Below, piece by piece: positions 18,001 to 21,000 of a stretch of DNA of 64,000 nucleotides (positions are counted from its first letter, which is position 1; every line of letters begins with the position of its first letter). The position numbers are program-made. This DNA is from Escherichia coli. Lineage in GTDB: Bacteria > Pseudomonadota > Gammaproteobacteria > Enterobacterales > Enterobacteriaceae. The DNA lies in NCBI RefSeq assembly GCF_017348835.2, contig NZ_CP071375.1; one strand, given 5' to 3'.

Positions 18001-21000
18001 GATCGACACCTCGGTAAGCCTGTGGAAAGGCGCGTTGAAACCGCTGGCAGCGGCTGGCTTTATTGCCACTTTTGCCGGGTTGATTTTCCACTACATCGGT
18101 ATTGGCCCGAATAAGGAAGTGGACGATGACGAGGAGGATCATCATGAGTAAGTCGAAAATGATTGTGCGCACCAAATTTATTGATCGCGCCTGTCACTGG
18201 ACCGTGGTGATTTGCTTCTTCCTGGTGGCGCTGTCCGGGATTTCGTTCTTCTTCCCGACGCTGCAATGGCTGACGCAAACCTTCGGTACGCCGCAGATGG
18301 GACGTATTTTGCACCCGTTCTTCGGCATTGCGATTTTCGTCGCGCTGATGTTTATGTTTGTGCGTTTTGTGCATCACAACATCCCGGATAAGAAAGATAT
18401 TCCGTGGCTGTTGAACATTGTCGAAGTATTAAAAGGCAATGAGCACAAAGTGGCGGATGTCGGTAAGTACAACGCCGGGCAAAAGATGATGTTCTGGTCA
18501 ATCATGAGCATGATTTTCGTGCTGCTGGTGACCGGGGTGATTATCTGGCGTCCGTACTTTGCGCAGTACTTCCCGATGCAGGTTGTCCGTTATAGCCTGC
18601 TGATCCACGCGGCTGCGGGTATCATCCTGATCCACGCCATCCTGATCCATATGTATATGGCATTCTGGGTGAAAGGATCGATTAAAGGGATGATCGAAGG
18701 GAAGGTGAGCCGTCGCTGGGCGAAGAAACACCATCCGCGCTGGTATCGTGAAATCGAGAAGGCAGAAGCGAAAAAAGAGAGTGAAGAAGGGATATAATCT
18801 CTTTTGAACTTTAAGCTGAAAATGGCGCTTTATAAAGTGCCATTTTTTTATTGCGTAACCAGACGGCGTAATCGCGACACATCCACCGTTTTTTCTGCCT
18901 CTGCCAGACTCCAGGCGTTTTGCAGATTCAGCCACATTTGCGGCGAACTGCCGATCACCACGGAAAGTTTAATTGCCATTTCTGGCGTCAAAGCTGCTTT
19001 TCCGGTCAGCAATCGGCTTGCCGTTGAGGGAGCAATTTCCATTGCTCTGGCAAACTCGCGCAGGCTGACATTAAGTTCGTCCAGTGATTCCTGAATAATG
19101 TCCCCCGGGCGGGGATGATTGGCCATTTTCATCAGTGATAGTCCTCGTAATCCAGTATGTATGCATCGCCATTGACGAATTCAAATGTGATTCGCCAGTT
19201 GCCCGAGACAGATATCGCCCAAATTCCATCGCGATCGCCGCTTAACGGGTGTAGTCGGTAACCGGGCATATCGATATCAGCAAGACAGCTTGCTGCATCA
19301 ATCACAGCGAGTCGGTGGCGTAATCGTTTGACTTGCGTCGGTATAACGCCGGAGGTTTTGCCGAGAAGAAACAAGTCACGCAATCCCTTGTGTCTGAAAT
19401 TCATTATCATCTCTTCATCCTTGTTCCCTCGAAAGGAACAGTATCACTATTGTTCCGTGCAGCGCAACAAATTTCGCTACGTTTTCGCAAATTGTGAGGG
19501 GAAAGATGGGGGAGGAAAAGAAGAAGAATGAAATTGCGGAAAGCGTCTCGCAAAACAGGCTGCGACCCGAACATGGGAGTCGCAGCAAAGGCCTCTTAGT
19601 GACGGAAATCAATCACCATACGGCCACGAATTTTGCCTTCTTCCATCTCGGTAAAGATGGTGTTGATGTCCGCTAACGGACGCAGGGCGACTTTCGGCAC
19701 CACTTTACCTTCGGCGGCAAACTGGAAGGCTTCAGTTAAATCCTGGCGCGTGCCGACCAGCGAACCGACCACTTCAATACCATCCAGCACAAGACGTGGG
19801 ATATCCAGGCTCATAGACTCCGGCGGCAGACCGACAGCCACAACACGACCGCCTGCACGGACAGCATCAACTGCCGAGTTAAACGCAGCTTTAGCTACTG
19901 CTGTTACCACCGCAGCGTGAGCGCCACCGGTTTTCTCCTGCACAATTTTGGCGGCGTCTTCGGTGCGTGAGTTAATCGCTAAATCTGCACCCATTTCGGT
20001 TGCCAGTTTTAACTGCTCATCATTGACATCAATGGCGATCACTTTCGCGTTAAAGACATTCTTCGCGTATTGCAGGGCGAGGTTACCCAGACCGCCAAGA
20101 CCGTAGATAGCAATCCACTGACCGGGACGAATTTTTGACAGCTTAACGGCTTTGTAGGTGGTGACCCCCGCACAGGTAATACTGCTGGCCGCCGCCGAGT
20201 CCAGACCATCTGGCACTTTTACTGCGTAATCGGCGACCACGATGCACTCTTCCGCCATCCCGCCATCAACGCTGTATCCGGCATTTTTAACTGAACGGCA
20301 GAGCGTTTCGTTACCACTGTTACAGTATTCGCAATGACCGCATCCTTCGTAAAACCACGCCACGCTGGCACGATCGCCTGGTTTTAATGAGGTGACACCT
20401 GGACCTACTTCTGCCACCACACCGATGCCTTCATGGCCCAGAATTACGCCGGTTTTGTCACCAAAATCGCCATTCTTAACATGAAGATCGGTATGACATA
20501 CACCACAACACTCCATTTTCAGCAGGGCTTCGCCATGTTTCAGTGAGCGCAGTGTTTTATCCGTAACGTCAACATGATGATCCTTCGTAACAACTGCAGC
20601 CTTCATAGTTCCTCCTTTTCGGATGATGTTCTGCATAGCAGGTGAGGCAAATGAGATTTATTCGCCACTACCCAGTATGGATGAGATCTGAAAAAGGGAG
20701 AGGAAAATTGCCCGGTAGCCTTCACTACCGGGCGCAGGCTTAGATGGAGGTACGGCGGTAGTCGCGGTATTCGGCTTGCCAGAAATTATCGTCAATGGCT
20801 TGTTGCAAAGCTTCGGCAGACGTTTTCACCGCCACGCCTTGCTGCTGCGCCATTTTGCCAACCGCAAACGCAATTGCGCGGGAGACTTTCTGAATATCTT
20901 TCAGTTCCGGTAGAACCAGACCTTCGCCGTTCAGGACCAGCGGCGAATACTGGGCAAGCGTTTCACTTGCCGACATCAGCATCTCATCGGTGATACGTGA

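Follow-up and report, generated by a model that had tools for sequence, protein, structure and literature searches.

Between fdnI and adhP, the 64,000-nt stretch of Escherichia coli DNA analyzed here (the window; contig NZ_CP071375.1 of assembly GCF_017348835.2) carries a gene pair that is very probably a chromosomal type II HigB/HigA toxin-antitoxin operon of the Proteus vulgaris/Rts1 subtype, ancestral in Escherichia, intact in this strain and working by the mechanism of its P. vulgaris homologue. The gene pair, its family membership, its catalytic residues, the purifying selection on it and its distribution among strains were observed directly. The HigB/HigA pair is real and intact, but it was already annotated and described, and it is predicted from its sequence to be functional.

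Two open reading frames (ORFs) lie on the minus strand between fdnI and adhP, and the toxin coordinates given in the original prediction, made from the sequence of the window, were confirmed:

19132..19410, minus strand: higB-type toxin gene, intact, 92 aa; WP_000605676.1, 'type II toxin-antitoxin system RelE/ParE family toxin'
18848..19132, minus strand: higA/yddM antitoxin gene, 94 aa, with an N-terminal XRE-type helix-turn-helix; WP_000781370.1

The toxin ORF starts with MIMNFRHKGL. Its stop codon TGA (19134-19132) and the ATG of the antitoxin (19132-19130) have one base in common, forming TGATG (CACTGATGAAA), and the raw sequence across the junction reads TATCACTGATGAAAATGG. The toxin gene lies upstream of the antitoxin gene, with this overlap and, in the terminator scan, no terminator between them. 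The toxin-first order, the 1-nt overlap and the 94-aa XRE-type partner that had been predicted were thus all found on the sequence.

The sole Pfam match of the toxin was PF05015 HigB-like_toxin (E 1.5e-17), covering essentially its full length, with residues 4-92 aligned to positions 2-91 of the 91-position model. Among all PDB chains, its best relatives were HigB chains of P. vulgaris (plasmid Rts1), namely 4MCT_B, 4MCX_B, 4PX8_A, 4YPB and 5IXL, with E values of 1e-30 to 1e-32; 4MCT_B and 4PX8_A matched at E 8e-32 with 57% identity, and a remote GraT ranked sixth. The pairwise alignment with P. vulgaris HigB (PvHigB) was ungapped over 92 columns, 57% of them identical, and H54, D90, Y91 and H92 were invariant, together with N71 and R73. 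In PvHigB, His54, Asp90, Tyr91 and His92 play a critical part in catalysis (Schureck et al., PMC5027501); since all four are present in the aligned toxin, the possibility that the ORF lacked catalytic residues was not borne out. From its full-length identity to the solved HigB chains, the toxin is expected to adopt a RelE-like microbial RNase fold. None of the PADLOC defence-system models matched it.

The antitoxin matched the curated equivalog model TIGR02607 antidote_HigA with 93.7 bits (cut-off 47.7) over profile positions 1-80 of 81, and HTH_3 in its N-terminal part (residues 14-65, E 5e-9). It is identical, over 94/94 residues, to the 'antitoxin HigA' of E. coli CFT073 in PDB entries 2ICP/2ICT, a chain named YddM/HigA (PMC3968373; PMC6987408) and described, for 2ICP, with an N-terminal helix-turn-helix (PMC6987408). 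Similarity to P. vulgaris HigA (PvHigA) extended over residues 7-87 (E 1e-18), and the only PADLOC match was a weak, generic helix-turn-helix one (PDC-M64B, E 7e-5). With these profile matches, neither ORF is an accidental reading frame. The family search proposed with the original prediction therefore returned HigB-like_toxin for the toxin and HTH_3 and antidote_HigA for its partner, and the HigB/HigA assignment is backed by family models, solved-structure relatives, catalytic residues and gene order.

In RefSeq, both genes are annotated in strain F2_81, whose sequence matches the window at 100% over 1 kb: yddM is called 'HigA family addiction module antitoxin', and the toxin WP_000605676.1 bears the name given above. 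The locus is also known as TA20 (ParE-2/HigA-2) in adherent-invasive E. coli (AIEC) NRG857c and in CFT073, where genes NRG857_07325/07320 of 279 and 285 nt share one base, and K-12 and HS hold the antitoxin only (Bustamante & Vidal 2020, PMC7232551). The higBA pair of CFT073 is also listed in a paper from 2016, with reference to Pandey & Gerdes 2005. Since RefSeq annotates both genes and Bustamante & Vidal describe the locus, the pair was not overlooked. Of the earlier suggestion of an overlooked or strain-specific system, the strain-specific part stood and the other part did not, as RefSeq/PGAP annotates both genes and the locus and the antitoxin structure are published. Compared with HigA/YddM of CFT073 and TA20 of NRG857c, the window has the same locus and the same proteins, with no difference of substance.

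HigB/HigA of Rts1 is the founding 'host inhibition of growth' module. Compared with this module (4MCT/4MCX, 4PX8, 4YPB, 6CHV), the window toxin has the same 92-aa length, identical catalytic residues and the same C-terminal ...NGDAYIL-YEDYH, the toxin gene is upstream in both, and both antitoxins are N-terminal XRE helix-turn-helix proteins. However, the Escherichia pair is chromosomal and vertically inherited whereas Rts1 is a plasmid, and position 57 is K in PvHigB and S in the window toxin. Structures of PvHigB have been solved for the free, the HigA-bound and the 70S-bound protein. GraT/GraA of Pseudomonas putida (6F8S) can be recognized as relatives, at E 4e-7 for the toxin and E 2e-11 for the antitoxin, although much more distant, and GraT differs in the disordered N-terminus and derepressor role reported in the literature. 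According to the literature, K-12 HigB/HigA (YgjN/YgjM, in the fadH-rlmG region) goes by the same family name, likewise has the toxin gene first and encodes a RelE-like toxin that depends on the ribosome, but it belongs to another locus and subtype, being set apart by description: the helix-turn-helix is C-terminal in K-12 HigA and N-terminal in CFT073 HigA/YddM and PvHigA (PMC6987408). At the K-12 HigB/HigA locus, NRG857c and CFT073 hold an orphan higA only (PMC7232551).

Upstream of the toxin gene, two elements bear on expression of the pair:

19411..19558, minus strand: hig promoter/leader region, from the adhP terminator to the toxin start, holding the candidate HigA operator
19559..19586, minus strand: adhP terminator hairpin (terminator-like site and inverted repeat), upstream boundary of the hig transcription unit

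Three 6-nt half-sites were found on the minus strand of the leader, GGAACA (19456-19451), N10, TGTTCC (19440-19435), N7 and GGAACA (19427-19422); one pair of them was also picked up as an inverted repeat by the repeat search. The half-sites recur with unchanged spacing in E. albertii, other Escherichia and the toxin-less K-12-type allele, which is otherwise strongly diverged. This conservation, and the analogy with PvHigA, whose dimer places its two helix-turn-helix motifs on two inverted repeats per operator and represses transcription (PMC12266136), point to the half-sites at 19456-19422 as a candidate HigA operator. A putative promoter picked by eye (TTGCGC, 16 nt, GATACT; 7/12 consensus matches) would overlap the first inverted repeat. 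The adhP terminator reads GCTGCGAC...GTCGCAGC followed by CTGTTTTG, and it was kept in all alleles aligned.

By analogy with the P. vulgaris system, the adhP terminator would set the hig unit apart, and higB and then higA would be transcribed from one promoter downstream of it that overlaps the inverted repeats, with the TGATG overlap probably coupling translation of the two genes. A YddM dimer would bind two HigB monomers and keep HigB off the ribosome, as the P. vulgaris HigA dimer binds two HigB monomers while leaving the active site open (PMC3968373). The same HigA dimer, sitting on the GGAACA/TGTTCC repeats that overlap the promoter, would repress the operon. When HigA is depleted, free HigB would enter the ribosomal A site, cut mRNA at A-rich codons via H54/D90/Y91/H92 and arrest growth; free PvHigB cleaves ribosome-bound mRNA via these residues (PMC5027501).

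Ancestry was studied by scanning one genome per species with the N-terminal peptide of YddM, back-translated to a degenerate DNA pattern. Five stretches were retrieved, from E. albertii NBRC 107761, Escherichia sp. MOD1-EC7003, two genomes labelled E. coli and a 214-nt contig. In E. albertii and MOD1-EC7003 (cryptic clade), both ORFs are intact between adhP and fdnI, and all four Escherichia loci are contiguous in the alignment across the toxin gene; toxin DNA is also carried by the other two Escherichia species representatives. Since the intact pair occupies the same locus in E. albertii and MOD1-EC7003, the presence of both genes between fdnI and adhP is the ancestral condition in the genus, and K-12 shows a derived one. 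The 214-nt contig (NZ_JAMQHS010000132.1, 'Clostridium sp. CMCC3677') has 99% identity to E. coli yddM and departs from it precisely at the K-12-type junction; it almost certainly represents E. coli DNA that contaminated a Clostridium assembly.

Between the window and E. albertii, higB has 8 synonymous and 0 non-synonymous changes (proportion of synonymous differences, pS, 0.13), higA has 12 and 0 (pS 0.18), and the neighbouring adhP has 112.5 and 6.5 (pS 0.46). With 63/276 sites synonymous, finding 8/8 synonymous changes in higB has a probability under neutrality of about 7e-6, transition bias being ignored, which indicates that the retained toxin is under purifying selection; such selection would argue for an active toxin. 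In YddM, no amino-acid change was found among the window, K-12 and E. albertii. As a separate observation, pS relative to E. albertii over 18848-20606 (against stretch L008) was much lower in higB, higA and fdnI (0.13-0.18) than in the adjacent adhP, which might be due to an ancient recombination tract or to differing codon constraints.

The original prediction took the toxin to be unannotated at this locus in K-12 and, in MG1655, yddM (b1477) is indeed the only gene between fdnI and adhP. The K-12 and window sequences are homologous through yddM and for 5 nt past its start codon, after which homology is interrupted until the adhP terminator; therefore, the toxin DNA is physically absent from K-12 and not just unannotated. 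YddM of K-12, an orphan HigA-type regulator, is identical as a protein (3 synonymous and 0 non-synonymous differences in the gene), and operator-like half-sites are kept: the K-12-type allele has TTGTTGCG..GGAACA-N10-TGTTCC-N7-GGAACG upstream of yddM, the counterpart of the window half-sites upstream of the toxin. Outside the half-sites, about 100 nt of leader (MG1655 locus L001, 1689-1791, against window 19411-19558) are ~65-83% alike with a sharp boundary, and upstream of the operator 85 nt, a CT-rich tract at ~19490-19530 among them, have given way to 38 unrelated nt. A simple deletion does not account for this sharp boundary. The pairwise alignment suggested that the DNA had been cleanly excised between two ATGAA repeats, but the multi-allele alignment gave an equally good alternative junction that keeps a degenerate 3' end of the toxin gene, and showed the upstream DNA to be replaced as well. 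Since the two alignments are equally good, the K-12 junction is ambiguous and no microhomology mechanism is claimed.

Distribution was counted in 5,426 complete E. coli genomes. At least part of a 1-kb locus query (window 18700-19700), taken as presence of yddM, was found in 5,413 of them, and toxin DNA in 1,330 (24.5%). The toxin is thus absent from ~4,096 genomes (~75%) and frameshifted in a further ~10%, with an identical -1 frameshift in 545 genomes, i.e., 41% of those retaining toxin DNA; by derivation, the toxin is possibly intact in ~785 (14.5%) as an upper bound. The frameshift allele is a single-base deletion, CACCGACTC to CACC-ACTC, near window position ~19305, and leads to a stop after 35 aa. 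It is exemplified by strain Ecol_AZ159 (L005, 401-678), where RefSeq flags a 'frameshifted' pseudogene, and it probably marks one large clone; several of the frameshift strains listed are presumably sequence type 131 (ST131). The toxin of a bat isolate has a 9-nt in-frame deletion. A hybrid allele was seen in one genome only, O157:H7 TR01 (L006, ~700-850), and combines a toxin-type 5' leader, a K-12-type operator segment and the last ~50 nt of the toxin gene; its YddM is the common WP_000781370.1 and not the O157 variant, and the allele may have arisen by recombination or through faulty assembly. The toxin was deleted or frameshifted in E. coli by at least three independent lesions.

This distribution gives some room to the proposal that the locus is a decaying relic, in which the toxin ORF is intact by chance and poorly expressed or non-toxic, while the selected unit is YddM as an ordinary XRE-family transcription factor. 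The same protein WP_000781370.1 is found both with and without the toxin gene, yddM is nearly universal where the toxin is mostly missing or frameshifted, and, in Gao et al. (PMC6237786), K-12 YddM is among the candidate transcription factors taken through chromatin immunoprecipitation with exonuclease digestion (ChIP-exo), with motif analysis of its binding regions and a deletion strain. A relic is nevertheless improbable, as it does not sit well with 8 synonymous and no non-synonymous changes in the toxin relative to E. albertii, with a complete set of catalytic residues or with an intact toxin ORF persisting in several Escherichia species.

The reading as an intact HigB/HigA operon has points against it as well. 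At least 85% of complete E. coli genomes have lost the toxin by deletion or carry it frameshifted, so that the toxin is dispensable and possibly weak. The literature search found no published toxicity or cleavage assay for this toxin. In NCBIfam, its only match was RelE_StbE with 17.8 bits, under the cut-off of 27.9, so family membership is based on Pfam and PDB homology. A scan of 18700-19700 for consensus sigma-70 promoters detected none, and conservation and analogy form the whole basis of the operator assignment. The CFT073 ΔhigBA mutant of Norton & Mulvey (2012) was considered as a test of this locus and rejected: the 40-nt homology arms of primers JPN150/JPN151 could not be placed anywhere in the window with up to 3 mismatches allowed, so the mutant concerns another hig locus.

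That the pair is instead a recent horizontal islet, which some pathogenic E. coli acquired by insertion between fdnI and adhP while the K-12 state is ancestral, is very unlikely. The toxin has been grouped with 'pathogen-associated' toxins absent from commensals (PMC7232551), and related toxins occur on many plasmids. However, the same pair lies at the same locus, with synonymous divergence, in E. albertii and the cryptic clade, yddM is near-universal and ~99% identical in both allele types, and the hig operator half-sites are kept in the K-12 allele. On plasmids, no relative exceeds 57% identity, leaving aside 3 plasmid-collection records at 90% or more, of which the 100%-identical one is 4.9 Mb long and evidently a chromosome; therefore, a recent plasmid import is not favored.

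Finally, a ParE-type gyrase poison in place of an mRNA endonuclease, as the label 'ParE-2 / ParE_toxin superfamily' (PMC7232551), the RefSeq name 'RelE/ParE family' and the fold superfamily common to RelE and ParE might suggest, is hardly credible, because the Pfam, NCBIfam and PDB sequence searches returned HigB, RelE and GraT and no ParE (HigB-like_toxin as sole Pfam match, RelE/StbE as sole NCBIfam match, HigB endoribonucleases or GraT as all significant solved-structure relatives), and the ribonuclease H54 and C-terminal D-Y-H triplet are conserved.

Around the hig operon, fdnH and fdnI lie on the plus strand, with fdnI ending at 18797, and adhP (stop codon 19596-19598) and then maeA on the minus strand. 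The gap from fdnI to the antitoxin gene is only 50 nt and holds one further element:

18818..18847, strand unassigned: fdnGHI intrinsic terminator hairpin between the convergent fdnI and higA (inverted repeat and RNA folding)

This hairpin, missed by the terminator scan and therefore folded directly, has 13-14 bp and is an inverted repeat with 14-nt arms that are 93% complementary. On the plus strand it folds with -15.4 kcal/mol (z = -2.96), and more weakly on the minus (hig) strand, with -10.8 kcal/mol (z = -1.0). It is followed by the U-tract UUUAUU, of which the first three bases (18848-18850) complement the TAA that ends the antitoxin gene. The predicted overlap between the antitoxin stop and the fdnGHI terminator thus holds in the limited sense that the start of the U-tract covers the complement of the TAA.

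The same interval varies among strains. In MG1655, it contains a 178-bp unit in 2.2 tandem copies with 95% matches (L001, 1015-1404, corresponding to window 18798-18847), each copy with a sequence like a repetitive extragenic palindrome (REP) and ending in a copy of the terminator hairpin. One extra copy is present in O157, one in some toxin-bearing strains and none in the 50-nt gap of the window; Rfam gave only sub-threshold, REP-derived matches (naRNA4/ES036) on the K-12 locus. In MOD1-EC7003 (L012, 734-1222), an ORF for a 162-aa Nudix-family hydrolase lies between fdnI and yddM, where the window has nothing but the terminator hairpin, and in strains JNEC-KY178 and MLI108K3 an IS200/IS605-family transposase is inserted in the fdnI-yddM-adhP interval. 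Further upstream, fdnG has an in-frame TGA at window 14792-14794, codon 196 (…DNQARV*HGPT…), which is the well-known selenocysteine codon of formate dehydrogenase-N, and because of it the ORF list gives fdnG only from 14843.

As a discovery, the locus has little weight, since the module was annotated, the antitoxin crystallized and the presence or absence in strains published. It is useful as a natural series of toxin-antitoxin decay in four states: both genes intact and under purifying selection (E. albertii, some E. coli), the widespread frameshift, the toxin-less allele with operator (K-12) and the rare hybrid. What remains mildly interesting is an orphan antitoxin that is near-universal and invariant in sequence after repeated loss of its toxin, which would fit a toxin-independent role. 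Tentatively, the orphan HigA may have such a selected role: it might have been domesticated to control a regulon of its own, or it might act from the chromosome as an 'anti-addiction' factor, neutralizing plasmid-borne HigB toxins of the Rts1 type.

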